Part shown: in pieces, positions 25,553-41,049 of the stretch
Position numbering within the stretch: the first letter of the stretch is position 1
How the letters are laid out: every line of letters starts with the position of its first letter
IMG/VR virus record: IMGVR_UViG_3300034012_002112
Coordinates: 1-58,647 of that record
DNA length: 58,647 nt
Strand: one strand, 5' to 3'
Source of the DNA: a virus
Lineage: Duplodnaviria; Caudoviricetes
The notes under the pieces: model-generated
Seen by the model: the letters and a program-made list of their open reading frames with translations, nothing else
Told to the model about the DNA's origin: nothing
Databases searched by the model: none
Program-made: the position numbers and the translations under genes

Positions 25553-25580
25553 TGGGTAGTTTTACGTCGTGCCCAGGACG
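25553..25580 (-). promoter_or_regulatory. leader pseudoknot motif, copy 1
   Basis: CGTC-CTGGGCAC-GACG-TAAAAC-TACCCA. Confidence 0.75.
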
Positions 25581-25598
25581 GCTCCACTGCAAGCGGAG

Positions 25599-25841
25599 TT
25601 AGTCTACCAGCTCTGTCAAGTCCTGATACCAGTCGGGAATTTCTTCCCCCAAGACTTCAGCACAGGCAGCATGGAGGGCAGACATAACAAAAGCCTTCTG
25701 CCCTTCTTCACCCCAGCTGGTCCAGAGTGCTAGATCAGGATCAGTATCATCCCATTCGATATGAATGGTGCAGCTACCGTCTTCCTCATCAATCACCTCG
25801 ATCTTTAGCTTTTCTGTCCAGTTCGTGTTCGACATGGCCAA
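25599..25841 (-). CDS. acidic hypothetical protein
   Basis: EEDGSCTIHIEWDDTDP. Confidence 0.7.
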   Translation of the reverse strand: MAMSNTNWTEKLKIEVIDEEDGSCTIHIEWDDTDPDLALWTSWGEEGQKAFVMSALHAACAEVLGEEIPDWYQDLTELVD

Positions 25842-26100
25842 TTAGTACGTTTTGTGCGTAATCCTCATGATGCATCTTAAGGTCAGCTGCTAACTTAACC
25901 AGCTCCCAGTGAGTATCCTCTGGGACTTCAAGGTCATAACGTGTGTTGGGTTTCATGCGAGGTTGAGTTGCAAGTTGACGGGCGTAATCAAAAATGTCAT
26001 CGTCATCGGTTGGCGTGACATGCAGTTGTGTTGATGGGCACGTTGTACCCAAACGAAACTTCTCAATTCTTGCTGTGGAAAAGATTAAATCATTTGTCAT
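25789..26100 (-). CDS. possible ribbon-helix-helix DNA-binding protein
   Basis: RYDLEVPEDTHWELVKLAADLKM..EDYAQNVL. Confidence 0.55.
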   Translation of the reverse strand: MTNDLIFSTARIEKFRLGTTCPSTQLHVTPTDDDDIFDYARQLATQPRMKPNTRYDLEVPEDTHWELVKLAADLKMHHEDYAQNVLIGHVEHELDRKAKDRGD

Positions 26101-27041
26101 TTCTTAATAACAGATTGGAGTTGAGGTAGTGCAATGCCAGGGAATGGAACGTAGCCAGCCTCCAGCATATTGAAGAACAAATCCCAGGCATCGTTCTGTG
26201 TGAACACTTCTTTGGGTTTGTAGGTACGCCAGTGGGTCAGTGGAGCCTGTGCTCCTGACTTGGTGTGCAGCAGAACAAAACGTCCATCACTGTGGGCATC
26301 AGAAGGTGGCGCATACCACCAGGCCACACACTTATCAGGCACACCACTGGGGCTAGCATTCCGTGCTTCTGTGCGTTTGCACAGCAACTCACGGTATTTG
26401 TGGAACCAGGTCAGATGGATACACCAGGGTCGGAAGCCTTGGATCTCCTTCTGGAATTCCGAAACATTAAGAAGCTGACGCTGAAAGGACCCACATGAGC
26501 AATAAGGTTCAAGAGCGACGGGCGGTACACCTGCGACTTCCTCCTCCATGTTAGACTCCAAGTCCACGGGCCGATTCGGAAGCCGCATCCCATCCGGCGC
26601 CACCAGATGTCCAAGGTCCGCCTGGTCCGACTGCAGGAGGGCAGTGAGTTTGGCAGGATCTGATAGGTGTATAAATTTGTCTGCCCAATGCGCCTGTAAT
26701 TGGGCGTTGGCTGTGATGTGTCCGAGTGCATGGGAATAGTGCCAGCCTTTAAACATAATGTAGGCATTGTGATGCCAGATGCTTGGACCCCTGTAGTTCG
26801 GTCCTAAGTAAGCAAAGAAATCCTTCAGCCGATTGCTGTAATCCATGAAGGCATGTTGGATCAGCGGCCTGTTGTAAGTCTGCTCACTACCATCCCTACG
26901 CACCACAAGGCAAGAATCATCTCGCAGATAAATGCCGGAGATGTCGCTGTCATCAAAATCCTTGAACGCACGCCGGAGGTTCGTCCGCGTGTAGATGCAC
27001 GCCTGCGCTGCGTTGAGTTCCTGGAGCGTTTCCGTTGACAT
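26097..27041 (-). CDS. SWIM Zn-finger protein
   Basis: YCSCGSF...WCIHL (CxC-xn-CxH). Confidence 0.75.
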   Translation of the reverse strand: MSTETLQELNAAQACIYTRTNLRRAFKDFDDSDISGIYLRDDSCLVVRRDGSEQTYNRPLIQHAFMDYSNRLKDFFAYLGPNYRGPSIWHHNAYIMFKGWHYSHALGHITANAQLQAHWADKFIHLSDPAKLTALLQSDQADLGHLVAPDGMRLPNRPVDLESNMEEEVAGVPPVALEPYCSCGSFQRQLLNVSEFQKEIQGFRPWCIHLTWFHKYRELLCKRTEARNASPSGVPDKCVAWWYAPPSDAHSDGRFVLLHTKSGAQAPLTHWRTYKPKEVFTQNDAWDLFFNMLEAGYVPFPGIALPQLQSVIKK

Positions 27042-27065
27042 GATTTGAATTGAGTTGAGGTTGAA

Positions 27066-27272
27066 TCAGATGAAGAGGTCCGTGTCCTGGTCCTCTTGCC
27101 CTTTGAGTTTAGACGACGGTTGGGCGTTTGCATAAGCGCTTTTAGCAATCCGATAGGTTGCGTAGGCCAGTGCACCCCAGGCAACGGGGTTACCAACGAC
27201 TGCAAGAATACCGGCACCTACAACACCAAAGGTACCGGCTGTAACAATTGCAGCTTTTTCTTTAGGTTTCAT
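27066..27272 (-). CDS. small membrane protein
   Basis: MKPKEKAAIVTAGTFGVVGAGILAVVGNPVAWGALAY. Confidence 0.65.
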   Translation of the reverse strand: MKPKEKAAIVTAGTFGVVGAGILAVVGNPVAWGALAYATYRIAKSAYANAQPSSKLKGQEDQDTDLFI

Positions 27273-27314
27273 GTGTTTGAGTAGAATTAAAATGAAGTGT
27301 TCGGTGGTGTACAC

Positions 27315-27581
27315 ATGGAAATCAAGTACGTCCCGCTTAATAAATTCCAGATTGAACCTTCAATGGAAGATAAGTTCTGGGAAGAAAAGATCAAACGTTC
27401 CATAGAAGAATGTAATTCGGTAAGTACCTTGAAAGAAATGGCGACCCTCTTGGCGAGGATCGCCACTCAACGTCAAGGTGTAATCCGTGGATTAGTTCAA
27501 GACATGTTCATCTTCAACAATGTTGCAGTTGAACAGGATGACCTGACTAATCCAGATATCCCGAACGGGAATAAACCTTAG
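27315..27581 (+). CDS. nblA: NblA-like phycobilisome degradation protein
   Basis: PSMEDKFWEEKIKRSIEEC.SVSTLKEMATLLARIATQRQGVIRGLV resembles the NblA two-helix pattern; TAGAAT upstream. Confidence 0.55.
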   Translation: MEIKYVPLNKFQIEPSMEDKFWEEKIKRSIEECNSVSTLKEMATLLARIATQRQGVIRGLVQDMFIFNNVAVEQDDLTNPDIPNGNKP

Positions 27582-28684
27582 AGAGAAGCATCCTCTCCGG
27601 TCATTTCATCCCGAGCGGGAAGAGCTTTGACATCTACAGGATCTGTGGTGCGAGAGACAGGAAGAATCTCGACGCCGTCCTTGATGCCATAAGCACCACC
27701 CAGTTTGTCAGCATCCTGCTTGGCATGGATGTTGATGTAATCATTGAACAGTTCCTGGAACTTCCAGGTTGATTCCCGATCTTCATCAGGAATTGACATG
27801 CGGCTCAACGATTCGATGGCATCTTCCTGAGTGCTGTAATCAGGGATGTCAAAAGATTCGATTGCGCAGATCTCAACGTTGTTGGCTCCACGCATCTCAT
27901 TGGCAAGTACCGGAGCAAATACGGTAGTGGCGTAGAACTTTTCATTGAAGCTCAGGGGGACTTCAGCATCCAGTGCTTTGCTCAGGCACTTGGACATTTC
28001 CTTTTCATACAGACGCACCTTCTCAGATACATCAGTACCATTCAATCCCTTCAGGGTTAACACCATCGGGATCTTGTGGGCACGCTTGTTGTCCTGAGTC
28101 AGGATGTACACAAGGTATTTGGTACGCACGCTATAGCGGCGCTTGTACATTTCACCTTTGCTGTTGGCAAGGTCAGATGCAACCTTGTCATCATCAAACA
28201 GTGCTTTGACCTCAGGGTTCTCAAAGGTACCAATGGTCTGGCGCATACCACTGGTCTCTTCCACCATCAGGGGAGAACGCAGCAGGATCTGGAGGCGAGG
28301 CTCAGTAAAGTTCAGGCCTTCCTCAACGGAGGTGTTAGGCGCCATGCCAAAGGTCTGCTTGTAGTTCCAGATCACAGAACCCTTGGCAAAGTCAGATTCC
28401 TCTGCAGTCCAGCCGCAGGTGTCCAAATCGGACTTACGGACAAACCAACCACGAACCTTGGACTTGTTCAAAGGTTGGATGGTTACCAGGTTCTGGTAGC
28501 CAGAGACAAACTCTTTGGACTGGAACATCTTGAAAGATTCCAGACCACGGGTAGCGAGTGCCGAGGTTTTCTTCACGGTCATTTTGTTGGAGGTTTTCAA
28601 AGAAGGGGCAGAGTTAGGGGCAGAGTCAAGGGAAGACTCGAGTTCATCCATCCAGGATTCACTCATCATGTCAGTTGGAGTCAT
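27578..28684 (-). CDS. conserved hypothetical protein (DUF5895-like)
   Basis: GWFVRKSDL..CGW...PRLQILLRSPL...YLVYIL...HKIPMVLTLKG. Confidence 0.7.
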   Translation of the reverse strand: MTPTDMMSESWMDELESSLDSAPNSAPSLKTSNKMTVKKTSALATRGLESFKMFQSKEFVSGYQNLVTIQPLNKSKVRGWFVRKSDLDTCGWTAEESDFAKGSVIWNYKQTFGMAPNTSVEEGLNFTEPRLQILLRSPLMVEETSGMRQTIGTFENPEVKALFDDDKVASDLANSKGEMYKRRYSVRTKYLVYILTQDNKRAHKIPMVLTLKGLNGTDVSEKVRLYEKEMSKCLSKALDAEVPLSFNEKFYATTVFAPVLANEMRGANNVEICAIESFDIPDYSTQEDAIESLSRMSIPDEDRESTWKFQELFNDYINIHAKQDADKLGGAYGIKDGVEILPVSRTTDPVDVKALPARDEMTGEDASL

Positions 28685-28706
28685 GGTCAGGTCTGAGTTT
28701 GGGTAG

Positions 28707-28733
28707 TGGTGCTTTTAACGTCATCCCAGGACG
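28707..28733 (-). promoter_or_regulatory. leader pseudoknot motif, copy 2
   Basis: CGTC-CTGGGAT-GACG-TTAAAAGC-ACCA; weakest second stem. Confidence 0.65.
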
Positions 28734-29023
28734 GGGTCAGAGTCTACCTCCTCTGGATCAGGGTTCTGTTCCATTTGCTTCTTTTCTTCATATTGGAAGT
28801 ATTCGTCAGCAATCTCTCGCATGCAGCTGTAGATCACTGAATCGTAGTGACCGCAACCACGCAAGAAATCAACAACATGACGAACAATGTTGTCACAAAA
28901 TACTTCCTGAAATGTTGTCAGGTTCTGGCTATTGCCATCCTGATGCAACAGATAGAAGGTGTCATGAGGAAGCTCCTCATTAACTGGAAGAATAAAATCA
29001 AATCCAACCTTTTCTTTTTCCAT
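28721..29023 (-). CDS. hypothetical protein
   Basis: 100 aa; VDFLRGCG motif. Confidence 0.7.
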   Translation of the reverse strand: MEKEKVGFDFILPVNEELPHDTFYLLHQDGNSQNLTTFQEVFCDNIVRHVVDFLRGCGHYDSVIYSCMREIADEYFQYEEKKQMEQNPDPEEVDSDPVLG

Positions 29024-29826
29024 TAGAAAGGCGCCTCCTCCAGCTCAGGTGCTGCACCATATTGACCAGGCAAATCAGGCAGACCAGTGTTGACAGACCA
29101 TGGATCAGTCTCTTCCTCTGCTTGACGCCCGCCCCACAGAGGAGTGACGTTATCCGATGCAACCGTGGTAGATGGCTGAATGGTTTGCGTTGATGGGGTT
29201 GTGCTTCCTTTGGGTGCAAGAGTCATGGAAACCAATTGAATCTTGGTTTGCGACTTCTTATCTCCATTAGCATCCTTCCATGCATCAGTCACCAGCCTGC
29301 CCTGGATAGTTAACCCAGTTCCTTTCTTGGTAAAGTTCACCAGAAGTTCAGCGTTATTAAGCTTATCTTCTGCTGTATTGATGGCATAGAAATTGAAAAG
29401 ATCTGCCTGATTCCTACCTGTATTTACAGACAGGGTTTGATTGCAAATCATCAACCCACTTTCCGTAGTTTTAAACGCCCTGGCATCGTCAGTAGCAATG
29501 TCTTTAACGCAACGGCCGCCGAGGATGACGGTGTTAAGCATCGGAAACTGATCATTGACCTGTACAACAGTGCCGCCATGGAGCGAGTGCGTTCTGCTTT
29601 CAAGGTCGAAGCGTAGCTTTGCGCCGTGAACGTAGATGTAGTTTCCCTTCTTGAGTCTTGAGAAACGCTCAGAGTTCTTTCCATAGATGTTGAGATCGAG
29701 TTGGGTTTGAGCTTTGTTACCAACAGGCGGCAGGATGACCGTGCAACGCATGGCGGTAGATGATGCTGAAGTAAAAACCTCACGCGGATCCTCGGACAGA
29801 TACGCGTAGACGCAAGCAAAGTTCAT
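29023..29826 (-). CDS. ssb: single-stranded DNA-binding protein, two OB folds
   Basis: NFACVYAYLSEDP...RLKKGNYIYV; NTVILGGR...KKGTGLTIQGRLVTDAWKD; acidic EEAPF tail. Confidence 0.85.
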   Translation of the reverse strand: MNFACVYAYLSEDPREVFTSASSTAMRCTVILPPVGNKAQTQLDLNIYGKNSERFSRLKKGNYIYVHGAKLRFDLESRTHSLHGGTVVQVNDQFPMLNTVILGGRCVKDIATDDARAFKTTESGLMICNQTLSVNTGRNQADLFNFYAINTAEDKLNNAELLVNFTKKGTGLTIQGRLVTDAWKDANGDKKSQTKIQLVSMTLAPKGSTTPSTQTIQPSTTVASDNVTPLWGGRQAEEETDPWSVNTGLPDLPGQYGAAPELEEAPF

Positions 29827-29846
29827 GAGTTCAGAAGGTAGGGGTA

Positions 29847-29873
29847 AGGCAGTTTAACGTCATACCTGGGACG
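29847..29873 (-). promoter_or_regulatory. leader pseudoknot motif, copy 3 (ssb leader)
   Basis: CGTC-CCAGGTAT-GACG-TTAAAC-TGCCT. Confidence 0.8.
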
Positions 29874-29879
29874 AAACGC

Positions 29880-30131
29880 CTATTTAATTGTTTCTATTTC
29901 TTCGGTTTTAGCAACATGTTCCACTTCATAATTAATACGTCCGGCAAAAGTGTTTCGTGTTGTAATTCGATAAACAGTACCGTCGTGAACAATTAATTCA
30001 GTGCCAGGCTCTGTTTTATTAGCAAGATTATCAAGATTCCATTTCAATCTCAATACCTCATTGTTTTTCTCTCGATGTTTAAGCCATGCTTTGAATAACT
30101 GTTTAAGAGTTGGTTTGCGTTTGGTTGTCAT
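29880..30131 (-). CDS. hypothetical protein
   Basis: MTTKRKPTLKQLF..., 83 aa, AT-rich. Confidence 0.6.
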   Translation of the reverse strand: MTTKRKPTLKQLFKAWLKHREKNNEVLRLKWNLDNLANKTEPGTELIVHDGTVYRITTRNTFAGRINYEVEHVAKTEEIETIK

Positions 30132-30135
30132 GGCT

Positions 30136-31956
30136 TTAGTGCGTTTGAGCCCAGGTGCTGCCGACCCGTGAGTCGCCATCAATCTTACAGCGAAATCCAA
30201 AGAATTCCTGCGCTTGTGGGAATGCACGCATGGCTTGTTCTCTGATGGTCTCAGTCAGGTCCTTAGGGCAAGACACCTGGATCTCATCGTGAATCATGGC
30301 GTGTTGAATCCAATGGCGCTCGTGTACTAAACCAAGCTCTGACAAATTGTCATGTAAATTAATAACAACTTGTTTCATGATGAGTGCGCCTGCTGCTTGC
30401 AATAGAAGATTCAATCCTTTGAATTCAGATCGACAAAACAATGCACGTTGATCTAATCCACGTAGATAACCACGGGATTGGATTGTAGATGCAATGTTTT
30501 CTTTCAATGATTTAAGAGCTGGCACACCTTTCATGAATGAATTAATTGCAGAACTTCCTAGTTGACGCAGAACTTCTGGATCTTTTTCATTCGGATTAAT
30601 GATAGTACCTGCCTTCATAGCGCCACATCCATAGAGCATTCCATACAAGAGACGTTTGCTTACGTCCCTGTTATCCACACCAAACTGTTGTTGGTTGTAG
30701 GTATGGATGTCAATGGATTCATCTGTTACCAGACGGGCGTATTCTCCGTCATCCCAGATGGCTAAGTATCCGGCCAAGCAACGTAACTCAAGAGCCTTAG
30801 CATCGACCCCAATAAGGTCCCAACTATGAGGAGCGTGGAAAAGGTTTCGGCATTCTTTTCCATAGGGGGAGTAAGCTGCTGGGACCTGACCCATGTTTGG
30901 ATTGCGGTGTGCGCAGCGCCCGCTAATGCAACCGTTAGTAACCAAATCCCCATGCATACATAGGTCATCGTTGTTAACGAGCTTGAGCCAAGCATTGTTT
31001 CCATCTGCGATTTGTCCCAGACGTTTTTTAACAAGCATGTATTCAGCTAAGGGCTGTGCTTCGGGGTAGGGCAAAGCCGCGAGTATATCGTCGTCAAGTA
31101 TTGGATTTCCTTTTTCCGTTGTTTTTTCAGGCGTCCATCCGTACTTCTGTCGTAGTCGGTCTGCAATTTGAGTACGAGATCCCGGATTGAATTCCTCAAA
31201 GCGAACCTTCGTGAAGGGCTGACCTTTGACATAGCCACGGCTTTTGTTATTCACCTTAGGGATGAACGTTTCCTCATGCCGTATCGGCGGAAACAATTCC
31301 TTTAGGTGGACCTCAAGTTCCGCTTGCTTTGCTCTAAGGACATCCACAAGATCAAGGCATGCATCAATATCAAAAGGAAAGCCTGCTCGAATTTGTCGGT
31401 TAATTGCCAGAGCAAAGTCATGTTCGAGCTTGAGTGCCGGACCTGGGTATTGCTGGGACGCAATGAAGCGCCAGAGTTTGAGGGTGACTTGAACATCCTG
31501 GACGCAGTAGTCCAGCATCTCTTGAGAATATTTGGAGAAGTCTTTGAACTCGATCTTATGATCGGCCAAGCGCCATCCCCATGCCTTAAGAGAAGCGGTT
31601 CCTCGGTTCTTCTTTGGAACCTGCGGATATTGTTCATTGTCCAGTTCCTCCAGAACTTCCTTTGGCCAGATCAATCTGGTGCAAATAAGCGTGTCGATGA
31701 TGCGGCATTTGAGGTTAAATGAATGCAGCTTTTGTAGAACCGGTACGTCATAGAAGATCACATTGTGACCAATGAGTACATCAGCGGTTGCCAGATGAGC
31801 AAGAGCATCATCAATGCGATCAGGCCCATAAGTAAAAGTTTCTGCTCTCGTAATGTCATAGATGACAATGCAGAAAATTTGCGTGACCTTGTCATACAAA
31901 CCATCAGATTCCAGGTCAAAGATCAGCCATGTTTCACTTTCTGAAACGGGCTTCAT
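30136..31956 (-). CDS. polA: DNA polymerase family A (T7-like) with 3'-5' exonuclease
   Basis: FDLESDG, GHNVIFYD, YCVQD; DAKALELR, KRLLYGMLYG, IHDE; start uncertain (track ORF extends to 32028). Confidence 0.95.
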   Translation of the reverse strand: MKPVSESETWLIFDLESDGLYDKVTQIFCIVIYDITRAETFTYGPDRIDDALAHLATADVLIGHNVIFYDVPVLQKLHSFNLKCRIIDTLICTRLIWPKEVLEELDNEQYPQVPKKNRGTASLKAWGWRLADHKIEFKDFSKYSQEMLDYCVQDVQVTLKLWRFIASQQYPGPALKLEHDFALAINRQIRAGFPFDIDACLDLVDVLRAKQAELEVHLKELFPPIRHEETFIPKVNNKSRGYVKGQPFTKVRFEEFNPGSRTQIADRLRQKYGWTPEKTTEKGNPILDDDILAALPYPEAQPLAEYMLVKKRLGQIADGNNAWLKLVNNDDLCMHGDLVTNGCISGRCAHRNPNMGQVPAAYSPYGKECRNLFHAPHSWDLIGVDAKALELRCLAGYLAIWDDGEYARLVTDESIDIHTYNQQQFGVDNRDVSKRLLYGMLYGCGAMKAGTIINPNEKDPEVLRQLGSSAINSFMKGVPALKSLKENIASTIQSRGYLRGLDQRALFCRSEFKGLNLLLQAAGALIMKQVVINLHDNLSELGLVHERHWIQHAMIHDEIQVSCPKDLTETIREQAMRAFPQAQEFFGFRCKIDGDSRVGSTWAQTH

Positions 31957-32167
31957 CTTGAATTGAGAAGTTTTCACTGGGGAGAGTTTGGTCATTTTCG
32001 TTAATCCACGCCAAGATTTGCTGTGCACCAGCCCTATATGGGTGGGAGTAAATCTTGTTCAGAGCTACTTCTGAATCTAACGGAATTAACTGAAATGCAT
32101 TGGTTTGAGAGCAGGCTGTAATGGCGTACGGCCTGCCCTCCTTCCAAGTAGCGATAACGTAAGACAT
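31934..32167 (-). CDS. hypothetical protein
   Basis: 77 aa. Confidence 0.65.
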   Translation of the reverse strand: MSYVIATWKEGRPYAITACSQTNAFQLIPLDSEVALNKIYSHPYRAGAQQILAWINENDQTLPSENFSIQDEARFRK

Positions 32168-32223
32168 GCAAAAGAAGTAAGACGGACAGATGATATCTGA
32201 TCCGTCAACCCTTGCAAGTGTCT

Positions 32224-32994: not shown

Positions 32995-32996
32995 GA

Positions 32997-33257: not shown

Positions 33258-33285
33258 TGAATGAGTTTAGGGACATCTCAGGTCC
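33258..33285 (-). promoter_or_regulatory. leader pseudoknot motif, copy 4
   Basis: GGAC-CTGAGAT-GTCC-CTAAAC-TCATTCA; compensatory stem 1. Confidence 0.75.
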
Positions 33286-33482: not shown

Positions 33483-33488
33483 AGGGTA

Positions 33489-34151: not shown

Positions 34152-34264
34152 AACCAGCACTGATTGTTTACTTGGTTAATACCAAAAAGAAGTTGGCACG
34201 CAAAGATGTGGAGTCCAAGCATGCCATCAGGGAATTAAAAAAACAATACGCCGCGACCTTCTGA
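34148..34264 (+). CDS. small basic peptide
   Basis: MKPALIVYLVNTKKKLARKD..., ATGA-coupled. Confidence 0.5.
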   Translation: MKPALIVYLVNTKKKLARKDVESKHAIRELKKQYAATF

Positions 34265-34513: not shown

Positions 34514-35063
34514 AGCGAAGTTGGAGGTAGTGGATCCATGAACGCAGTGTACCGTTCATGTACAAACGAGTTGGTGTCGCAAGAGGCAGAATGAATCGAG
34601 CTGATTCCTTTGCTACGCCTTCACTGATCATCTCCTGGTAGAGATGCTTGGAATCCTCCAGGATGTTGGACATACGCCGGTAGTAGTGAGCAAGCTTGTC
34701 ACCACCAAGGCGTTCCTTTAGATCATCGTTGGAGTTCTGCCTGTTCTTGTAGTCCTGGCTACGCAGGTGCGGCATGGTAATGCTGCCTACATCAGTGATG
34801 TCTGCGTAACGCTGACTGAATTCCTGGAAGCTGAATGAACGATGCCTCAGGATCTGTGGTGAGATAGCACGTGTTGTGTTGATTTCAACACACATGTTTC
34901 CCATTTCGAATGGGGACCAGTGCTTGTGTTTGATGAGGTATTGCAACAGCCGTGGGGCTGTATCCATATTGTCTTGATTCTTCGGGGCTGATACCCGAGC
35001 CATCTTGACAATCATTTCTTCTGCATTGGGTGTTGACCAGATTAAGTTGACGTTCATTGTCAT
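34404..35063 (-). CDS. thyX: flavin-dependent thymidylate synthase
   Basis: HWSPFE, QILRHRSFSFQEFSQRY, KESARFILP, TQLEHR. Confidence 0.97.
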   Translation of the reverse strand: MTMNVNLIWSTPNAEEMIVKMARVSAPKNQDNMDTAPRLLQYLIKHKHWSPFEMGNMCVEINTTRAISPQILRHRSFSFQEFSQRYADITDVGSITMPHLRSQDYKNRQNSNDDLKERLGGDKLAHYYRRMSNILEDSKHLYQEMISEGVAKESARFILPLATPTRLYMNGTLRSWIHYLQLRCDPGTQLEHREIAEGIKGLFCREFPIIGEAVFTADQ

Positions 35064-35269
35064 TTGCAATGCAGTAGGTAATGGTACTTGGCACCCCAAG
35101 GGTCTGTATATCTAACAACATCACATCCTTGATACTGATCAATGACCTTGAACTTCTCCTCCTGCGTATCAGGAGATTGAAAGATCATGGCAATGATGAC
35201 AAGGATGAAAGCACTGATAGTAAGTCCCCAAAGGGTTCCTTGCAGGATCATGCGTGCACGTGTATCCAT
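35060..35269 (-). CDS. small membrane protein
   Basis: TM helix then FKVIDQYQGCDVVRY. Confidence 0.7.
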   Translation of the reverse strand: MDTRARMILQGTLWGLTISAFILVIIAMIFQSPDTQEEKFKVIDQYQGCDVVRYTDPWGAKYHYLLHCK

Positions 35270-35562
35270 TACTCCCCTGGTACTAGTGTGTTCTTCATCA
35301 TGAATAGTAGATCACGCTCATGACAGATGCGCATCTGTGCGTGCTCTGTTGGAGTTTGCAGGTGGTCCCACAAGATGCGTAACATCTTCTGTTTGGAACC
35401 ACGTGCAGTGATCTTCTCACTAAAGCCAACGACCGTACCGTAGCGTTGGCTGCGGTACTGAGCAATGCGTTCTTTGACCTCTGCTCGTACGGTGAATAGG
35501 GCGTGCGTCTTGGGACGCTCTGCCACACGATCACCAACTTGGTAGGTTGATTTGGTTTTCAT
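35269..35562 (-). CDS. SH3/KOW-like hypothetical protein
   Basis: YQVGDRV...GTVVG...ILWD. Confidence 0.65.
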   Translation of the reverse strand: MKTKSTYQVGDRVAERPKTHALFTVRAEVKERIAQYRSQRYGTVVGFSEKITARGSKQKMLRILWDHLQTPTEHAQMRICHERDLLFMMKNTLVPGE

Positions 35563-35909
35563 GATTCGTACCAGGTGCAATCAGAAGATTCAGGAGTGTC
35601 GTATTCAGGGAAGTCATAGGTGCATTGCTTGCCATTGTTATGGATGCAATCAGTACACAATGATTCTTCTGTTTTGATTTCAGTTGGTTGTGTGTTAAGC
35701 AGTTTATAAAACTGGCTAACCAAAAGCAGATTCTGTTTTGCTTCCTCAAAGAAATCAGCGGTGACTTCATGAGTAGTAAAACGTGCTTCGCAATAATCAC
35801 ATTGTTTACGCCGACGCGTAGACAAATGTGTTTGTCTGCTTTCGATAACACGCAAACCAGGTTGTTTGCAGTTGGGACATTCAGGAAGAAGCGTCTTCTG
35901 AAAGGCCAT
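35559..35909 (-). CDS. NrdR-type Zn-ribbon protein without ATP cone
   Basis: CPNC...RVIESR...RRRKQCDYCEARFTTHE; second C-terminal Cys cluster. Confidence 0.75.
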   Translation of the reverse strand: MAFQKTLLPECPNCKQPGLRVIESRQTHLSTRRRKQCDYCEARFTTHEVTADFFEEAKQNLLLVSQFYKLLNTQPTEIKTEESLCTDCIHNNGKQCTYDFPEYDTPESSDCTWYES

Positions 35910-36331
35910 TACTCCGGATCAATGGATGAAGGTGCACTATTGGTACGTGCTTGTTCTTCTGCTTCTCGTTTAGCTTTTGGTACAGGCAACTTGTCCAGCT
36001 GCAATGAATCCAGGATGTACAAGGTTGCTTCTTCTCCCTTGATACGGAACATATCAGGGATGATCTCCATAGGATTCTGGAGATAGTAATCAGTTAAATA
36101 CATCTCACACATACGAAACATTGTTTCGACAGGGAGTTCATCAACGATATTGGAAACTGCTGCATCAAGGACAGCAGGCCACGTATGACGAGGGACTAAC
36201 TCAATTACTTTGAGTACCAGATCCATATCCACTTCTGCAGGAGTAGGGATATCTTTCTGTAACTCTTCTTGATATGGTTCAGGTAGTTGATCTTGTTCTT
36301 GAGCTAGTGATGGGTCAGGGTTGAGTTTCAT
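35909..36331 (-). CDS. hypothetical protein
   Basis: 140 aa, acidic. Confidence 0.7.
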   Translation of the reverse strand: MKLNPDPSLAQEQDQLPEPYQEELQKDIPTPAEVDMDLVLKVIELVPRHTWPAVLDAAVSNIVDELPVETMFRMCEMYLTDYYLQNPMEIIPDMFRIKGEEATLYILDSLQLDKLPVPKAKREAEEQARTNSAPSSIDPE

Positions 36332-36359
36332 AAGAAAGAGCCCCCGCTTGCGCAGGGGC
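36332..36359 (-). terminator. rho-independent terminator
   Basis: GCCCCTGC-GCAA-GCGGGGGC-TCTTTCTT. Confidence 0.75.
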
Positions 36360-36379
36360 CTGAACATTCCGGACTGATA

Positions 36380-36742
36380 TTAGGCAGGTTGGGCACTGGT
36401 GTCCACTACCTGGTCCATCAAACCTGCGTCTTTGAGGCGATCCAGCATGCCGCACATGATGGTGGCATGGGCATGGGTTTGTTCCATGAACATCTGTGCT
36501 CGCTCTGCGGACATGGTGTGGACACGACCGCAGGGCTCCACATATTTCCAGCTGCCATCAGGCTGGGGATCACCTTGGAGGGCAAGACGCTCTGAGTTTC
36601 GAACGTACCGTAGTTCGAGGTTGTGATAATCCTTAAGGCCGTCAGCGGCTGTCCAGGTTGCACCAATGTTGTACCTCTGATCTTCGTCAGAGTAAGCATG
36701 GAACTCAGGGATGAGGTTGCGAAAAGCGGAAAGGAATTGCAT
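36380..36742 (-). CDS. hypothetical protein
   Basis: 120 aa; starts 18 nt after tRNA-Leu. Confidence 0.7.
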   Translation of the reverse strand: MQFLSAFRNLIPEFHAYSDEDQRYNIGATWTAADGLKDYHNLELRYVRNSERLALQGDPQPDGSWKYVEPCGRVHTMSAERAQMFMEQTHAHATIMCGMLDRLKDAGLMDQVVDTSAQPA

Positions 36743-36760
36743 TGTTGTAATGAATTGAGT

Positions 36761-36836
36761 TGGTACCCGAGGTGGGATTCGAACCCACGCTGGAACGATT
36801 TTAAGTCGTTTGCCTCTTCCGCTGGGCTACTCGGGC
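36761..36836 (-). tRNA. trnL: tRNA-Leu(TAA), short variable loop
   Basis: GCCCGAG/CTCGGGT, AACGA-CTTAAAA-TCGTT, GTGGG-TTCGAAT-CCCAC, ACCA end; 76 nt. Confidence 0.92.
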
Positions 36837-37045
36837 GCACCTGGGCTTACCTCTACATCAATCGATGTTGAGTGCCAGGTGTGGTCTTGGGGTAATGGCT
36901 CAGTGCCATACTCCCATGTATCGTAATCTTCCTCATTGCGTGGGTCTTCTTCGACCAGAACGTAATGAGGTGAGTTGTCATGGATGAATTCTCCGATGTT
37001 GGCCATGGCCATAGCTAGGAGTTGATCATCGGTGTAGTCAGTCAT
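36827..37045 (-). CDS. acidic hypothetical protein
   Basis: MTDYTDDQLLAM...DYDTWEYGTEPLP; stop lies inside the tRNA. Confidence 0.65.
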   Translation of the reverse strand: MTDYTDDQLLAMAMANIGEFIHDNSPHYVLVEEDPRNEEDYDTWEYGTEPLPQDHTWHSTSIDVEVSPGAPE

Positions 37046-37101
37046 GAGGTAAGGACCAGCCCTAGTATCGAGGCTAAGGCTGGTCAACTTGGGCTCGGCC
37101 G

Positions 37102-38814
37102 TCAGGACTGTAGCGCAGATTCACGCTCTTGCAATGCAAGCCGGAATGCTGCGGTGTACTGATCCTTCTGGTCGTCTGTCAACCGTTGGTTGGCGATACC
37201 AGCGATCTGTTTGACTGACATCATGCCCATATCAACAGTAAGTTGAATGGTGAATTGAGGTTTGCCATCAAGCATACAAAGCACAATGAAGTGCTTCTTC
37301 TTCTTGCAATCCTCAGCGTAGTGGGAAGCAGAGCCAACGCAATTGCGTACGGCCTGACCCCACATAGCTAGTTGATGAGTGTCAACAGGCTGGAAGAATG
37401 ACCATGATTGATCATCAAGAGTGACACGAACGGGCTGAGGGAATAAATCCTGGGGCAACCCTTCGTTTGGATTCTTGATCTTCCAAGCTTCTGCCTGGAT
37501 GTGATCATGGAATTCTTCAATGCGCCAACGTTTGGGTGGTTCGACAGTGACGCCAGCATCTAAGATGCGAGAAAGCATGGACAAAGTATCTGTCCAATCA
37601 CTGAATGTGAACTGATAACACTTAAGGTCACTGTCAAAGATATAACCATACTTACGTTCTTCTGCTTCTTTTAGTGCAGCTCGATAGTATTTATCAAGCA
37701 TATTGAAGTAAGAAGCTACATGCATGTGTTGCTTTAGCCATGCGACTGCCAATTCGTTAGCACCCTGGCGCAAACGAATGTTAAGCATGGCATCTAAGTT
37801 GGTTTGATAGTAGTCAAGAGGTGCGTCAGGCCACAGTGCATTCACAGAGTTAATGCTGTAGCACAGGTGTGCAATCTGTTTCCATGGCGCACGAATGTTA
37901 CTGGCATGCGTATTGTCTGGATCGTTGTATTGTTTAATGGCTTCATCGCAACGCTCTTGAATCCACCGACGGAAAAACGGTTTGTCAATAATGTGACGGA
38001 TGCGTTGTACATCTTTGTACTCACATCCTTCATAACCAGATTGGTTAAAGTAATAATCAACGATACGGAAGAAGTTATCTGCAGAAGGCAGCCACTCTTC
38101 CTTGTTAACAGCGCCGCTGTTGAAGTAAGCAGGCAAGCGTAGTTCCAATGCATCTACAATGCATGTGGTACGAATACGATCAAACATATTCCTGGTATCT
38201 TGCCAGGTTGGAATTGTGACACGCAATTGATCTTCGAATTGACCAATTGCTTCAGAGATACTACGTGCTTTCTGGTAATAGCTAGCCACACCAGGTGCAC
38301 GCCAGTGGCGTTCTTCATTGCCATTGCGAACGTCATACTTATTGATGAGGCGTGAATGATAATAGATCTGACTGCGACCTACGGTGCGGCAATCAAATTC
38401 ATGGCGTTGATTCCAGAAACGATTAGGAACAACTTTGGCTGAGGCCTCAGTATCTTTAAATGCAACGGCATAGCCATAAAGATAATTATCTTCTTGTCCT
38501 TTGGGAGGCAACCAAGCTGCATACCAGCACTGTTCAAAGTGATACAGAATGGCGTAGGGTACTAGTGTCTGATCCTTGAAACGAGTGAACAGTTGGTAGC
38601 GATCTGCTACACCAACGGAGTTGATGTGGTTGGTTGCATCCTGATGAATAGATTCAGGCATTATCTCCCTGGGAATCAAGTCATTGATATTGCCCAGGGG
38701 ATACTTAGCCTTCTTGGTTTGTGTCTTGGGTTTGTTCTGCTGTGCCAGCTTTTTCAGCGTGGGATCATAGGCCAGCAGTTCGGTCTGAAGGTTGGAGGGG
38801 AGTTGGAAATGCAT
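37102..38814 (-). CDS. PcfJ-like domain protein
   Basis: DTLSM...FHD...LAMWGQAVRNCVGS..YAE...FTIQL...QIAGIAN. Confidence 0.75.
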   Translation of the reverse strand: MHFQLPSNLQTELLAYDPTLKKLAQQNKPKTQTKKAKYPLGNINDLIPREIMPESIHQDATNHINSVGVADRYQLFTRFKDQTLVPYAILYHFEQCWYAAWLPPKGQEDNYLYGYAVAFKDTEASAKVVPNRFWNQRHEFDCRTVGRSQIYYHSRLINKYDVRNGNEERHWRAPGVASYYQKARSISEAIGQFEDQLRVTIPTWQDTRNMFDRIRTTCIVDALELRLPAYFNSGAVNKEEWLPSADNFFRIVDYYFNQSGYEGCEYKDVQRIRHIIDKPFFRRWIQERCDEAIKQYNDPDNTHASNIRAPWKQIAHLCYSINSVNALWPDAPLDYYQTNLDAMLNIRLRQGANELAVAWLKQHMHVASYFNMLDKYYRAALKEAEERKYGYIFDSDLKCYQFTFSDWTDTLSMLSRILDAGVTVEPPKRWRIEEFHDHIQAEAWKIKNPNEGLPQDLFPQPVRVTLDDQSWSFFQPVDTHQLAMWGQAVRNCVGSASHYAEDCKKKKHFIVLCMLDGKPQFTIQLTVDMGMMSVKQIAGIANQRLTDDQKDQYTAAFRLALQERESALQS

Positions 38815-38842
38815 GGTGAGTTCGGAGTGAGTTCGTAGTTGG

Positions 38843-38870
38843 TGAGCAGTTTAATGTCATGCTCAGGACA
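38843..38870 (-). promoter_or_regulatory. leader pseudoknot motif, copy 5
   Basis: TGTC-CTGAGCAT-GACA-TTAAAC-TGCTCA; perfect 6-bp second stem. Confidence 0.85.
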
Positions 38871-38879
38871 ATTGGTTAA

Positions 38880-39059
38880 TCAGTCATCTTCACGCCACTC
38901 ATCCGCAAGTATTGCAGAGTAAGTGTCGTCGATGTTGTATGTATCAACGGGTGTCATAACTGGCATCCGTTTTGCAAATCCAGTGGCAAGATAAACTCTG
39001 CCCCTGGGGCCACGCAGTACAAAGTACCAGCGTTTAAATTCAATTGAGAAACCAATCAT
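38880..39059 (-). CDS. hypothetical protein
   Basis: ATGA-coupled, 59 aa. Confidence 0.55.
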   Translation of the reverse strand: MIGFSIEFKRWYFVLRGPRGRVYLATGFAKRMPVMTPVDTYNIDDTYSAILADEWREDD

Positions 39060-39316
39060 GAATCTAAATCCCAATCGGAGGTGTCGATGAGTTGCCAGTT
39101 AAGATCGAGTGAATCAAGATAGCTACAGAAGCCATCTTCGTCAGTAGGGATCTGTTCTCCTTCATCCAGCTCGAAAGAAGCTGTGCATAATGCAGGAGCC
39201 CATTCCTCAGGGTCGAGATGAGTTGCTTTGTAGAGCAGACGCATGTCGTCCACAACTGCTGTAACTGTGACATCAGATCCATTGATTGTTGTGTCCTCGA
39301 TTGCAAGTACAGTCAT
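39056..39316 (-). CDS. acidic hypothetical protein
   Basis: ATHLDPEEWAPALC. Confidence 0.7.
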   Translation of the reverse strand: MTVLAIEDTTINGSDVTVTAVVDDMRLLYKATHLDPEEWAPALCTASFELDEGEQIPTDEDGFCSYLDSLDLNWQLIDTSDWDLDS

Positions 39317-39501
39317 TAGTTTGGTTCAATGAATTGACATGCAGGTGTGATGTAACACCGATACTTAGACCAGGTGCGTACTGTGGTGTACTCACCGTGA
39401 AATCGATCAGTGTCACATACGTACATCTCCGCCCTGCGCACAGCGCAGTTGGCGATGTGAATACGATCAAACAATGTGAGGCAATCGGTTGCAGTTGACA
39501 T
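39316..39501 (-). CDS. hypothetical protein
   Basis: 61 aa, TAATG coupling. Confidence 0.6.
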   Translation of the reverse strand: MSTATDCLTLFDRIHIANCAVRRAEMYVCDTDRFHGEYTTVRTWSKYRCYITPACQFIEPN

Positions 39502-39509
39502 GAGTTGAA

Positions 39510-39716
39510 TTAGAAATCAAAGAGTTTGATGTTGCGCTTGGACAAGCCGGTGCCTGGAATCGAAATCGATCCCAATACACCAGACTTACGGGCGTTCAGC
39601 GTTAGCTGAAACGGTCCAAGCTGAATGGATTTAGTGTAACTTTTGACGCCATGTTCGGTGATGTTGACACCGTGTATTGTGCGATCAAAGTTAAATCCAG
39701 ACTTGGGTTCTGACAT
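39510..39716 (-). CDS. DUF4236-like hypothetical protein
   Basis: KSIQLGPFQLTLNARKSGV..SISIPGTGLS. Confidence 0.65.
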   Translation of the reverse strand: MSEPKSGFNFDRTIHGVNITEHGVKSYTKSIQLGPFQLTLNARKSGVLGSISIPGTGLSKRNIKLFDF

Positions 39717-39738
39717 AGTGTTGAGCTGAGTTGAGTGA

Positions 39739-39776
39739 GGACTTGAAGTCTACCAGCGATGTCAAGTCCCTGGTAG
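39739..39776 (-). promoter_or_regulatory. interleaved 7-bp and 8-bp stems (pseudoknot or switch) in leader
   Basis: CTACCAG-GGACTTGA-CATCG-CTGGTAG-ACT-TCAAGTCC. Confidence 0.7.
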
Positions 39777-39805
39777 GTTTAAAGATTCTCTTAATGTTTC
39801 GTAAA

Positions 39806-40042
39806 TCAAATTCCAGCAAGGCTGGGTTCGTACTCAGGGCTGGGATCGTAATCAATCCGTTCTTCTAACATTGCAATCGCTTCTTCTATTACTTCGTCAT
39901 CACCTGGGACCAGATGCTGACAAGTACATGAGCGCTTGCTTTCACGTTCGAGAACAGCTTTGAGTAGATCCACTGCTTCTTTCAGTTTGACATACTCATT
40001 TGATTTCCAGTCAATGGTTGGGTATGTAGTTGGGGTAGTCAT
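39806..40042 (-). CDS. hypothetical protein
   Basis: 78 aa. Confidence 0.65.
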   Translation of the reverse strand: MTTPTTYPTIDWKSNEYVKLKEAVDLLKAVLERESKRSCTCQHLVPGDDEVIEEAIAMLEERIDYDPSPEYEPSLAGI

Positions 40043-40188
40043 GGTGATGTGATGGGAATGAGAGGGTAGGTAGATGGGAGGTTATCTACTAATAAAAGGA
40101 TTATTCCTGGTACTCCCCTTCGGGGGTCTGGGGGGGGGAATGCTTGGTAGCTATCCAAGAGATTCCTCCTTCGGGATATAAGTAAAAC

Positions 40189-40440
40189 TTATGTGTTGGT
40201 TGGTTCTTTGATGATCCAACCTGTGTAGTGATTAGTGGTTCGATCAACGGATATCAACTTGTATTGTTCAAGCTTCTCCAATGCCTTGAGGTATTGTTCA
40301 AGCCTGGTAGCTTGCATGTTTATCCTTGGTACGAAACATGGATTGAGACCATGCTTCTTCTTGTGTACCAAGTAGTAATTGTACAAATTGCGTTGATTGA
40401 TAGTCAGTGCTGGCATCTGATTCTGTAGTTGCGTTGACAT
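40189..40440 (-). CDS. winged-helix-like (LexA-DBD-like) protein
   Basis: LTINQRNLYNY...YLKALEKLEQYKLISV. Confidence 0.55.
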   Translation of the reverse strand: MSTQLQNQMPALTINQRNLYNYYLVHKKKHGLNPCFVPRINMQATRLEQYLKALEKLEQYKLISVDRTTNHYTGWIIKEPTNT

Positions 40441-40779
40441 TTAGATCAAGCCGAGAATCCTAAGCCAGCTGTCGGGATGGTCCGGTTCGACTTCGTCTTC
40501 ACCTGGCGTGAAGCAGACGCTGTCGAACGCCCACTCCTCAATCTCTTCGTTGGTTGGGATGTCGTACCAACCTTCGAGTTCTTTGTCTCCATAGACGGGG
40601 ATCCAGTAACATCTGAGGATTCCCTGCTTGTTTCTGTAGACGTTGCCAGTGCAGGCGATGGCGCCTTTCGGTGCGTTCTGGAAGTCGCACTCTGCCTGGT
40701 ACTGTTGCTGCCCTTCTTCTTGGTCGAAGGGTTCGTACCCGAAGGTGGCAGCGATTTCTTCAGTGATGGGGTGAAGCAT
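40441..40779 (-). CDS. acidic hypothetical protein
   Basis: PTNEEIEEW..DSVCFTPGEDEVEPDHPDSWLRILGLI. Confidence 0.7.
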   Translation of the reverse strand: MLHPITEEIAATFGYEPFDQEEGQQQYQAECDFQNAPKGAIACTGNVYRNKQGILRCYWIPVYGDKELEGWYDIPTNEEIEEWAFDSVCFTPGEDEVEPDHPDSWLRILGLI

Positions 40780-40851
40780 GAGATGAATTCTGTAATGAAA
40801 ATTGAAATGAGTGTGATGATGACAATGATGATGTCATCCTGTGGGCGTTGA

Positions 40852-40995
40852 TCAGCCGTCTTCGTCGTCATGAATAACGCCCTCCCATTCGTATTGGTTT
40901 GATTCCATCATTGCTTGATATTGTTCTGCTGCCATGTCAGCCATGGCATCAAGAGCATCAGATGGAATATCATTCTCAAATTGATTGTTGTCCAT
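40852..40995 (-). CDS. small acidic protein
   Basis: MDNNQFENDIPSDALDAMADMAAEQYQAMMESNQYEWEGVIHDDEDG; CAACTCAATTCA leader. Confidence 0.6.
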   Translation of the reverse strand: MDNNQFENDIPSDALDAMADMAAEQYQAMMESNQYEWEGVIHDDEDG

Positions 40996-41021
40996 GGTTT
41001 GAATTGAGTTGATAAAAGGAT

Positions 41022-41049
41022 TGAGAAGTTTAACGTCATACTCAGGACG
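41022..41049 (-). promoter_or_regulatory. leader pseudoknot motif, copy 6
   Basis: CGTC-CTGAGTAT-GACG-TTAAAC-TTCTCA. Confidence 0.8.

Follow-up and report, generated by a model that had tools for sequence, protein, structure and literature searches.

We analysed a window of 58,647 nucleotides, positions 1 to 58,647 of the IMG/VR record IMGVR_UViG_3300034012_002112 (Duplodnaviria; Caudoviricetes), which is a relative of Synechococcus phage S-EIVl. The window carries exactly six copies of a motif of 27-28 nt, all on the minus strand, and the ORFs that follow include those of a DUF5895 protein, SSB and a PcfJ-like protein (Table 1). The initial annotation had described these six repeats in 5' leaders as copies of a covarying pseudoknot of about 28 nt, and this observation is confirmed. 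A degenerate pattern found 6 occurrences on the minus strand, 0 on the plus strand and 0 for the reversed-pattern control. We then built a covariance model from 150 sequences, i.e. the six copies of the window and 144 from other phage contigs. The six copies scored 24.9-49.1 bits (E 1e-12 to 2.7e-5), partly by construction since they were included in the model, while the next hit in the window had E = 0.77. The distance from the end of the motif to the next ATG is 20-36 nt.

Table 1. Copies of the motif in the window. Sequences are given as stem 1, loop, stem 1', linker and 3' tail; CM, covariance model.
Copy	Position	Strand	Sequence	Upstream context	Downstream context	CM score	Remarks
1	25553..25580	-	CGTC-CTGGGCAC-GACG-TAAAAC-TACCCA	18 nt after the stop of the upstream ORF (25599)	23 nt before ATG 25529 (39-aa ORF, then a Gp157-like 237-aa ORF)	37.6 bits, E 3.5e-9	Orthologous copy in S-EIVl with GGG/CCC changed to GAG/CUC
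2	28707..28733	-	CGTC-CTGGGAT-GACG-TTAAAAGCACCA	Stop codon TGA of the upstream 100-aa ORF (28723-28721) lies inside the motif	22 nt before ATG 28684 (DUF5895, 368 aa)	37.5 bits, E 3.7e-9	Short-loop type; in-register helix 2 is only TGG/CCA (3 bp)
3	29847..29873	-	CGTC-CCAGGTAT-GACG-TTAAAC-TGCCT	6 nt after stop TAG (29880)	20 nt before ATG 29826 (SSB, 267 aa)	42 bits, E 1.6e-10	The S-EIVl orthologue before its SSB gene has AAGCA/UGCUU
4	33258..33285	-	GGAC-CTGAGAT-GTCC-CTAAAC-TCA		36 nt before ATG 33221 (74-aa ORF, then a GP88-like ORF)	24.9 bits, E 2.7e-5	Stem 1 doubly compensated; the only copy followed by a small hairpin (ATAAGCTCAGCTTAT, -3.0 kcal/mol)
5	38843..38870	-	TGTC-CTGAGCAT-GACA-TTAAAC-TGCTCA	9 nt after stop TGA (38880)	28 nt before ATG 38814 (PcfJ-like, 570 aa)	49.1 bits, E 1.1e-12	Closest to consensus
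6	41022..41049	-	CGTC-CTGAGTAT-GACG-TTAAAC-TTCTCA	38 nt after stop TAA (41088)	26 nt before ATG 40995 (47-aa ORF)	46.4 bits, E 7.5e-12	

The stem 1 variants CGTC/GACG, TGTC/GACA and GGAC/GTCC are as initially described, and so is the pairing between loop and tail in five copies, the exception being copy 2. A megablast of the 17-kb arm against GenBank phages and a tblastn with the 518-aa ORF at 14138-15691 returned no match.

Covariation, distribution and placement of the motif

We first tested if the motif is restricted to this phage. A search of IMG/VR with a pattern that left the 3' tail free returned at least 117 loci, and almost every hit had a tail complementary to its own loop: 151 of 156 distinct copies had at least 4 contiguous loop-tail pairs. 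We used 150 of these 156 copies (6 from the window, 144 from IMG/VR) to test for covariation. In this set 90.1% of the cells pair, against 84.3% in shuffles (0 of 500 shuffles reach the observed value), while slid controls give 24.8-45.6%. Both helices covary, and helix 2 is 85.7% paired with 3 covarying pairs. Pair 11-30 is AU in 90 sequences, GC in 41 and GU in 11; pair 3-20 is CG in 74, UA in 25, UG in 21 and GC in 8; pair 5-18 is UA in 139 and AU in 11, with none broken. A relaxed scan found the stem 1 cores CAC/GTG, GCC/GGC, ATC/GAT, GAC/GTC and CTC/GAG, always with the closing C-G pair, and 226 GTC/GAC hits against 1 in the reversed control. Orthologous sites in S-EIVl carry compensatory changes. 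It is important to highlight that many instances are orthologous, and the counts given here and below are not independent.

The motif also occurs in more than 120 bacterial contigs, in cultured phages of cyanobacteria, Actinobacteria, Firmicutes, Paracoccus and Vibrio, and in a microvirus. Its carriers range from a 6-kb microvirus to 230-kb myophages, and no phage protein is shared by all of them. Copies are co-oriented with the neighbouring genes: the left neighbour is on the same strand in 195 cases and on the opposite strand in 44, and the right neighbour in 215 and 36 cases, respectively. The motif is tied more tightly to the upstream stop codon than to the downstream start. Of 159 copies, 55 start 5-8 nt after the stop of a frame of at least 60 codons and only 3 start closer than 4 nt, whereas the distance to the next start varies from about 10 to more than 100 nt. 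Some copies are far from any ORF end, and the upstream (tiny) ORF ends at or inside the motif in 77 of 136 bacterial copies, as in copy 2 of the window. The tiny AHCxxGC peptides had no match in Pfam or NCBIfam.

The genes downstream of the motif are often scaffold/capsid or SSB genes. In 5 of 5 Firmicutes siphophages inspected, the motif lies in the gap before the scaffold-like gene and the major capsid gene, and in a microvirus it lies before the capsid gene. Of 97 downstream ORFs, 8, 7 and 3 match three scaffold PHROGs and 5 match SSB. In contrast, no scaffold family is among the 25 listed of the 62 families for 86 upstream ORFs. The motif also precedes structured RNAs: some copies lie 1-5 nt before tRNAs or between tRNAs, others just before hammerhead and pistol ribozymes or near twister ribozymes. 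A T-rich run follows 17 of 159 copies, and some copies are followed at once by a sigma-70-like promoter, a U-run or a terminator, in part as judged by eye. A search for sequencing runs listed only lake and freshwater DNA metagenomes and no RNA data.

Comparison with known RNA elements

No Rfam family matches the motif. Searches of Rfam 15 at gathering score on the window and on 19 loci, and at E <= 10 on one copy, returned nothing over it, and the initial annotation had not recognised it as a named family either. The main text of a survey of 224 motifs (PMC5737381), whose consensus diagrams are in the supplements, mentions nothing like it, and those motifs are in Rfam. Literature searches with the linker and loop sequences returned the coremin paper and otherwise unrelated papers, and searches for xrRNA or coremin together with phage or RNase J gave no paper on a phage or bacterial xrRNA among those listed.

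The interpretation in the initial annotation was partly supported. The motif is a two-helix, strand-specific, RNA-level pseudoknot, and of the proposed analogues (the T4 gene 32 pseudoknot, preQ1-I, exonuclease-resistant RNAs and HK022 put) the exonuclease-resistant RNAs are the closest by far, the similarity to the other three being architectural only. The proposal of a regulon of this phage was not supported, because the same module occurs in phages of at least five host phyla, in a microvirus and in bacterial chromosomes. The suggestion of a translational operator or a riboswitch was not supported either, since the occurrence before tRNAs, ribozymes and other structured RNAs argues against both.

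The closest known system is the coremin Xrn1-resistant RNA of plant and fungal RNA viruses (xrRNA_C), and especially its Watson-Crick variant (xrRNA_WCC) (Dilweg, Olsthoorn et al.; PMC6546385, PMC10520033, PMC10321173). Coremin is GUCCGAAGACGUUAAACUAC. Its hp1 of 3-5 bp has a sequence-specific closing C-G pair, pairs 2 and 3 can be swapped with compensation, and the AAACU of its linker GUUAAACUAC is essential. The phage motif is nearly identical in stem (GUC/GAC) and linker (GUUAAAC): the GC and CG columns are invariant, pairs 3-20 and 5-18 covary, the stem variants all keep C-G, AAA is invariant, TT is at least 90% conserved and C and T at least 70% conserved in the alignment, and some copies read GTTAAACTAC exactly. 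These values are partly imposed by the search patterns, which fixed TAAA and part of the stem. In both, the loop starts with a pyrimidine, and coremin is also found in intergenic regions and near stop codons. The Watson-Crick variant pairs loop GGAG with CUCA directly after GUUAAA, and the phage motif shows the same canonical antiparallel pairing. However, its loops (CUGAGCAU, CUGGGUAU, CCAGGUAU or CUGGGAU) do not fit the coremin consensus YGAD or YGNNAD: they have 7-10 nt instead of 4-6 and their second base is U or C instead of the required G. Helix 2 has 4-7 bp instead of 3, and the carriers are DNA phages and bacteria, which have no Xrn1. Furthermore, both coremin types strictly need a second hairpin (hp2) right after the linker for Xrn1 resistance. 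We did not find this hairpin: the 26 nt after the motif are no more structured than shuffles (mean -1.71 against -1.58 kcal/mol, n = 294), and 5 of the 6 copies in the window give 0.0 kcal/mol.

Other systems are more distant. The pistol ribozyme (RF02679) has a P1 hairpin whose loop forms a pseudoknot of roughly 6 bp followed by an A-rich linker, and it is common near phage genes in Firmicutes. One copy of the motif lies immediately 5' of a pistol ribozyme whose own P1 region looks alike. Yet the motif lacks P2, P3 and the G-U cleavage junction, its pseudoknot 3' strand follows the linker directly, and the Rfam Pistol model does not hit it, even at E <= 10 on one copy. In the class 3 xrRNAs of Tombusviridae and Luteoviridae (PMC11702639) the apical loop also pairs with the 3' flank to close a ring, and these RNAs are used upstream of coding regions as well as in 3' UTRs, but they have two stacked helices with conserved L2B and J1/2 motifs, are 44-54 nt long and show no sequence likeness. 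Luteovirus-type H-type frameshift pseudoknots and preQ1-I riboswitches are of the same size class, with an A-rich loop 3 expected to lie in the stem 1 minor groove, a comparison also drawn in PMC10321173. The motif has no ligand-related gene context and no Rfam match, and slippery heptamers, which a -1 frameshift stimulator has 5-9 nt upstream, are not enriched 4-10 nt upstream of it (4 of 294 against 11 and 9 in shifted controls). Finally, the 5' mRNA stabilisers of Firmicutes (ermC, SP82, cryIIIA STAB-SD) protect downstream RNA from RNase J, but act through bound ribosomes or 5'-terminal hairpins and not through an internal autonomous knot.

A possible roadblock and alternative readings

Our analysis shows that the fold is under selection and that the family is spread through many phage lineages and some bacterial chromosomes; what follows on its structural kinship and function, including any resistance to nucleases, is inferred from sequence and by analogy. 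We interpret each copy as an H-type pseudoknot in the mRNA, with a stem 1 of 3-4 bp (usually GUC/GAC, closed by an invariant C-G pair) and a loop whose 5' part pairs with the 4-7 nt that follow the A-rich linker (G/A)UUAAAC. This would be the same structural solution as coremin, its Watson-Crick variant and the P1-pseudoknot core of pistol ribozymes. Our preferred reading, which remains tentative, is that the knot acts without a dedicated protein as a directional mechanical roadblock at the 5' edge of an intergenic region. A 5'-to-3' decay activity that has consumed the upstream cistron would stop at the base of stem 1. This activity would be the RNase J exonuclease in cyanobacteria, Firmicutes and Actinobacteria, and perhaps 5'-end-dependent scanning by RNase E elsewhere. 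The leader, any tRNA or ribozyme, and the next gene would then outlive the upstream RNA, which would raise the yield of high-demand products such as SSB, scaffold and capsid proteins. In this view, the 5-nt minimum gap after the upstream stop codon would keep a terminating ribosome from unwinding the knot. A flaviviral xrRNA also stops bacterial RNase J1. Yet, beyond the lack of hp2, several observations fit poorly with this reading. A BWYV-type pseudoknot of similar size does not stop Xrn1. RNase J (TIGR00649) is over cut-off in only 11 of 20 motif-bearing bacterial genomes and is not over cut-off in the Omnitrophota, Planctomycetales or Bacteroidetes genomes tested, although these are incomplete MAGs. 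A Vibrio phage cluster also carries the motif. The copies followed at once by promoter-like sites, U-runs or terminators suit a 3'-end element better, and the ORFs ending at or inside the motif also count against the roadblock.

Several alternatives are less likely. The knot could be a 3'-end element of the upstream cistron, blocking 3'-to-5' exonucleases after downstream cleavage (by RNase P at a tRNA, by a ribozyme, or by RNase E in the A/C-rich leader) or acting as part of an unusual terminator. The tight spacing to the upstream stop, the vicinity of tRNAs and ribozymes, and the T-rich runs, terminators or promoter-like sites after some copies are consistent with this. However, the gene bias is downstream and not upstream, the nearest characterised relatives block enzymes coming from the 5' side, and a knot of 4 bp plus 6 bp is presumably a weak obstacle from the 3' side compared with ordinary terminator hairpins. 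An equally unlikely possibility is a barrier met by the ribosome that finishes the upstream ORF, controlling termination, post-termination sliding or re-initiation and thereby uncoupling or tuning translation of neighbouring cistrons. The sharp minimum gap of about 5 nt after stop codons and the tiny ORFs ending inside the motif in bacteria favour it, and the ribosome is the only 5'-to-3' machine common to all hosts seen. Moreover, coremin stalls scanning ribosomes and stimulates -1 frameshifting, and Watson-Crick variants were selected in an E. coli frameshift reporter. The lack of slippery sites, the copies between tRNAs or far from ORF ends and the variable distance to the next start argue against it.

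The idea of a processing signal, where the stacked helices mimic a tRNA acceptor/T minihelix or another endonuclease substrate cut by RNase P or another universal RNase, is somewhat more doubtful. It would account for the association with tRNAs and self-cleaving ribozymes, which are other processing sites, and for the broad host range, but there is no conserved CCA-like tail (CCA follows helix 2 in 9 of 150 copies) and coremin transcripts are stable without nuclease in the published assays. Binding of a conserved host protein or a small ligand is improbable. The compact architecture with an A-rich linker resembles that of the smallest riboswitches and several single-stranded positions are invariant, but the downstream genes have no common metabolic theme, the motif occurs before tRNAs and ribozymes, and there is no expression platform, as the tail is not SD-like and only a minority of copies have terminators. 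A minimal self-cleaving or otherwise catalytic RNA related to pistol would fit the shared P1-like hairpin, loop-tail pseudoknot and A-rich linker and the nearby pistol, hammerhead and twister ribozymes, but is very unlikely given the differences listed above, and because the leaders after the knot in the window are G-poor and unstructured. A DNA-level promoter or operator is the least likely. TAAACT resembles a -10 hexamer and GTC-N8-GAC is palindromic, but the loop and tail covary, the same sequence occurs in hosts with unrelated promoters, the motif is strand-locked to the genes, and it sits inside late operons before scaffold genes. An integron attC (GTTRRRY core) was rejected because there is no inverse core and the carriers are phages.

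The xrRNAs are so far known only from eukaryotic RNA viruses, and the 2018 study showing that RNase J1 is blocked called it an enzyme that they 'never naturally encounter'. It is possible, although less likely than not, that the motif is the first natural exoribonuclease-resistant RNA class of the prokaryotic world. DNA phages, from microviruses to jumbo phages, and some bacteria would then use this protein-independent knot to halt RNase J or scanning RNase E at cistron boundaries. This would set the relative abundance of scaffold, capsid and SSB mRNAs and, in bacteria, generate stable 3'-UTR-derived RNAs from tiny-ORF genes. An element of 28 nt with the stem and linker of coremin, under clear structural selection in phages of hosts that do have RNase J, would make testable the concrete question of whether bacteria and their viruses also program exonuclease stops. 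It would also provide a natural series of loop and helix 2 variants for understanding the unsolved coremin fold, a compact mRNA-stabilising part for engineering, and a useful annotation mark for cistron boundaries before high-demand phage genes. We also considered GGTAGACT as a shared promoter box in the window: it has 4 matches, all on the minus strand, against 1.05 expected, but 3 of 100 shuffles reach 4 and the signal is too weak.

Copies of the motif in the window and in phage S-EIVl

The six stretches read as they had been written in the initial annotation, and the observation thus holds. A degenerate pattern found six matches on the minus strand of the window, none on the plus strand and none when the pattern was reversed. 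We then built a covariance model from 150 sequences and scanned both strands with the filters off. The six copies scored between 24.9 and 49.1 bits (E 1e-12 to 2.7e-5) and the next hit had E = 0.77. The six copies were among the sequences used to build the model and match it partly by construction, so the informative result is the gap to the next hit. The motif ends 20-36 nt before an ATG, and the leaders that follow it are A/C-rich, almost G-free and lack a Shine-Dalgarno sequence. Many other leftward genes have similar leaders, with repeated (C)AACTCA(A) words just before the ATG. The ORFs that follow the six copies are three small ORFs and those of a DUF5895 protein, an SSB and a PcfJ-like protein.

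The window is an IMG/VR virus record with an estimated completeness of 74%, and the metagenomes that hold its DNA are from lakes and freshwater. Its family-A DNA polymerase is 70.4% identical over its full length to that of Synechococcus phage S-EIVl, from a high-arctic lake. S-EIVl carries seven copies of the motif in its 32-kb leftward arm, all on the gene strand. They lie before its SSB gene, before the apparent counterparts (by size and gene order) of the DUF5895, PcfJ-like and GP88-like genes, and before a 41-aa ORF. Orthologous sites differ by compensatory changes. Before the small ORF, GGG/CCC in the window is GAG/CUC in S-EIVl and the outer stem-1 pair C-G is A-U. Before SSB, AGGUA/UGCCU is AAGCA/UGCUU.

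The other features recorded in the window are listed in the table. No phage RNA polymerase was found among the ten ORFs scanned. All occurrences of the sequence GGTAGACT are on the minus strand and two of them are just upstream of motif copies 1 and 2. It is a possible -10-like box, but the evidence is weak because 3 of 100 shuffles reach the same number of matches.

Further features of the window, with their positions
Feature	Position	Strand
Primase-polymerase/D5-type helicase fusion (879 aa)	9670-12309	-
Family-A DNA polymerase with an RNase H-like exonuclease domain	30136-31995	-
Tail fibre with a Peptidase_S74 chaperone domain	22424-24121	-
tRNA gene inside the leftward arm (59 bits)	36764-36836	-
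GGTAGACT, four occurrences	22304, 25601, 28741, 39747	-
Leaders of many leftward genes, without a Shine-Dalgarno sequence	22000-43000	-

Structural conservation, genomic placement and carriers

We searched IMG/VR with a pattern that fixed only stem 1, part of the loop and TTAAA, and retrieved at least 117 loci. Nearly every hit carried a tail, left unspecified in the pattern, that is complementary to its own loop (e.g. TGAGCA with TGCTCA, TGGGTA with TACCCA and TAAGCA with TGCTTA). Among 156 distinct copies, 151 had at least 4 contiguous loop-tail pairs. We counted the pairs of both helices in 150 of these 156 copies (the last six in sort order were left out). This revealed that 90.1% of the cells were paired, against 84.3% in shuffles (0 of 500 reached the observed value), with 105 doubly changed cells against 40.8 in shuffles (0 of 500), whereas slid controls gave only 24.8-45.6% of paired cells. 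Helix 2 has three covarying pairs (for example AU 90, GC 41, GU 11) and stem 1 has two (CG 74, UA 25, UG 21, GC 8; and UA 139, AU 11, with none broken). The search pattern constrained stem 1 and the first loop base, and these columns are therefore partly ascertained. A relaxed structural scan found further stem cores (CAC/GTG, GCC/GGC, ATC/GAT, GAC/GTC, CTC/GAG), all of which kept the closing C-G pair, and 226 GTC/GAC hits against 1 in reversed sequence.

The motif acts in RNA. Among 296 distinct copies, the nearest long ORF on either side is on the strand of the motif about five times as often as on the other strand (195 against 44, and 215 against 36), and neighbouring tRNAs are always on the same strand. 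Together with the loop-tail covariation and the use of the motif in hosts with unrelated promoters, this excludes a DNA operator or promoter for practical purposes.

The tightest positional constraint is to the upstream stop codon. Among 159 viral copies, 83 lie within 20 nt of a same-strand stop. At single-base resolution, stem 1 starts 5, 6, 7 or 8 nt after the stop in 28, 11, 7 and 9 cases, respectively, and only 3 cases are closer than 4 nt. The distance to the next start is broad. What follows the motif varies. It can be a leader, with or without a Shine-Dalgarno sequence, and a gene, or a tRNA 1-5 nt away (Nostoc phage NMeng1, Arthrobacter phage Molivia and several IMG/VR loci). It can also be another structured RNA. 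In one of the loci retrieved by our scans (L235), motif copies are followed within about 25 nt by type III hammerhead ribozymes (two Rfam matches, and four repeat units by eye). In locus L182 a pistol ribozyme starts at the next base, with a twister-P5 nearby, and in loci L193 and L212 the DUF2800 RNA starts right after the motif. In several Firmicutes loci (L144, L149, L165, L203, L214, L228, L059, L086 and L051) the motif is followed by a second conserved leader resembling ...GCGTGTYYGGKYNNNAGRGTCRRATGKGC...AAAGGAG, for which Rfam named nothing in the loci scanned. In a minority of cases there is a promoter-like site, a U-run or a terminator.

We searched for cultured carriers with three 33-nt BLAST queries. 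These retrieved phages of Synechococcus, Nostoc and Microcystis; phages of Mycobacterium, Arthrobacter and Microbacterium; phages of Streptococcus, Lactobacillus, Bacillus and Moorella, a deep-sea thermophile phage, and Christensenellales and Acutalibacteraceae phages; Paracoccus phages; two crAss-like phages; a microvirus; and one cluster of 27 Vibrio phage records, whose copy has stem CUC/GAG. One query found nothing in 5,426 complete E. coli genomes. A stricter pattern, used on bacterial contigs with one genome per species, retrieved at least 120 loci (L127-L246), mainly from Omnitrophota, Desulfobacterales, Planctomycetes, Saccharibacteria and Firmicutes. This pattern included part of the tail, and these hits are not independent evidence for helix 2. 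Some of these loci look like phage DNA, with several copies plus tRNAs or ribozymes. However, 77 of 136 bacterial copies (for example in L140, L131 and L171) follow a conserved tiny ORF of about 17-30 aa, carried by Omnitrophota, Desulfobacterales and Planctomycetes, whose stop lies at or inside the motif. It ends in ...(W/Y)M(L/F)xP(V/T)AHC(K/T/S)(E/G/A)GC... or ...HCSACGS, and gave no match in Pfam or NCBIfam. Of these copies, 21 precede a gene, putatively Rrf2-like, starting MK(L)(I/V)T, a start that resembles those of Rrf2-family regulators, and others are followed by a terminator.

Comparison with known RNAs

No Rfam 15 family matches the motif, even at E <= 10. A literature search with the linker sequence led to the coremin motif of plant viruses, GUCCGAAGACGUUAAACUAC. 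Its dissection (PMC6546385) shows a 3-bp stem GUC/GAC, a closing C-G pair that cannot be flipped, second and third pairs that tolerate compensated swaps, and a linker in which A16-A20 are essential. The phage family shows the first three of these constraints and has AAA invariant in the linker. A later study (PMC10321173) describes a Watson-Crick variant in which the loop pairs canonically with the bases after GUUAAA, for example GGAG with CUCA in a picorna-like virus, and notes its likeness to luteoviral frameshift knots. These authors searched RNA viruses only. The phage motif differs from coremin in three ways: its loop is longer and does not fit YGAD or YGNNAD, its helix 2 is longer, and it lacks hp2, which both coremin types strictly need for Xrn1 resistance. 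Indeed, the 26 nt after the knot are no more structured than shuffles. The motif also resembles the P1-pseudoknot core of pistol ribozymes, but lacks the catalytic half. Hence, we do not classify it as a member of coremin or pistol, but as a distinct RNA of this structural type.

The initial annotation had proposed a phage-wide RNA regulon without a named family. This interpretation is partly supported: the element is an RNA pseudoknot without a match in Rfam, but it is larger in extent than had been thought, since it is an undescribed cross-phylum family whose nearest relatives are the xrRNAs of eukaryotic viruses. While the existence of this family is shown by our analysis, its function, including any resistance to nucleases, is inferred.

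Inferred function

The shared constraints suggest that the motif and coremin have the same fold. The only tested property of that fold is resistance to machines that thread RNA from the 5' side, i.e. Xrn1, scanning and elongating ribosomes and, for other xrRNAs, also bacterial RNase J1. Our preferred reading, which remains tentative, is that the knot is a roadblock. This reading has several difficulties. The motif lacks hp2, and carriers exist without a clear RNase J: 9 of 20 genomes were not over the cut-off, including the Omnitrophota and Planctomycetales MAGs, to which the Vibrio phages must be added. Furthermore, some copies are followed by terminators or promoters, and some ORFs end inside the knot. 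The rival readings are a 3'-end protector, a ribosome barrier, a processing signal of the RNase P type, a site for a factor or a ligand, a ribozyme and a DNA site. The data disfavour a role in frameshifting and a CCA-like tRNA mimic.

Two lines of evidence favour an effect on the downstream RNA. In all five Firmicutes siphophages that we inspected, the motif lies in the gap before the scaffold-type gene that precedes the major capsid gene. The next gene is annotated as scaffold in Javan271, phiEF-1.1 and D6E, whereas in Javan119 and MissE2 it is annotated as hypothetical or minor structural and the capsid gene follows. In the microvirus the motif precedes the capsid gene. The other line of evidence comes from 97 downstream ORFs of IMG/VR loci, of which 8, 7 and 3 match three scaffold PHROGs (the overlap between them being unresolved), 5 match SSB and 10 match the GP88-like family. 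In contrast, the 86 upstream ORFs show no scaffold family among the 25 families listed out of 62. Scaffold, capsid and SSB are needed in bulk, and a block to 5'-to-3' decay at the start of their segment would raise their mRNA relative to that of upstream genes. In this view, the 5-nt floor after stop codons would fit a knot that must not be unwound by the terminating ribosome, as inferred from the ribosome footprint.
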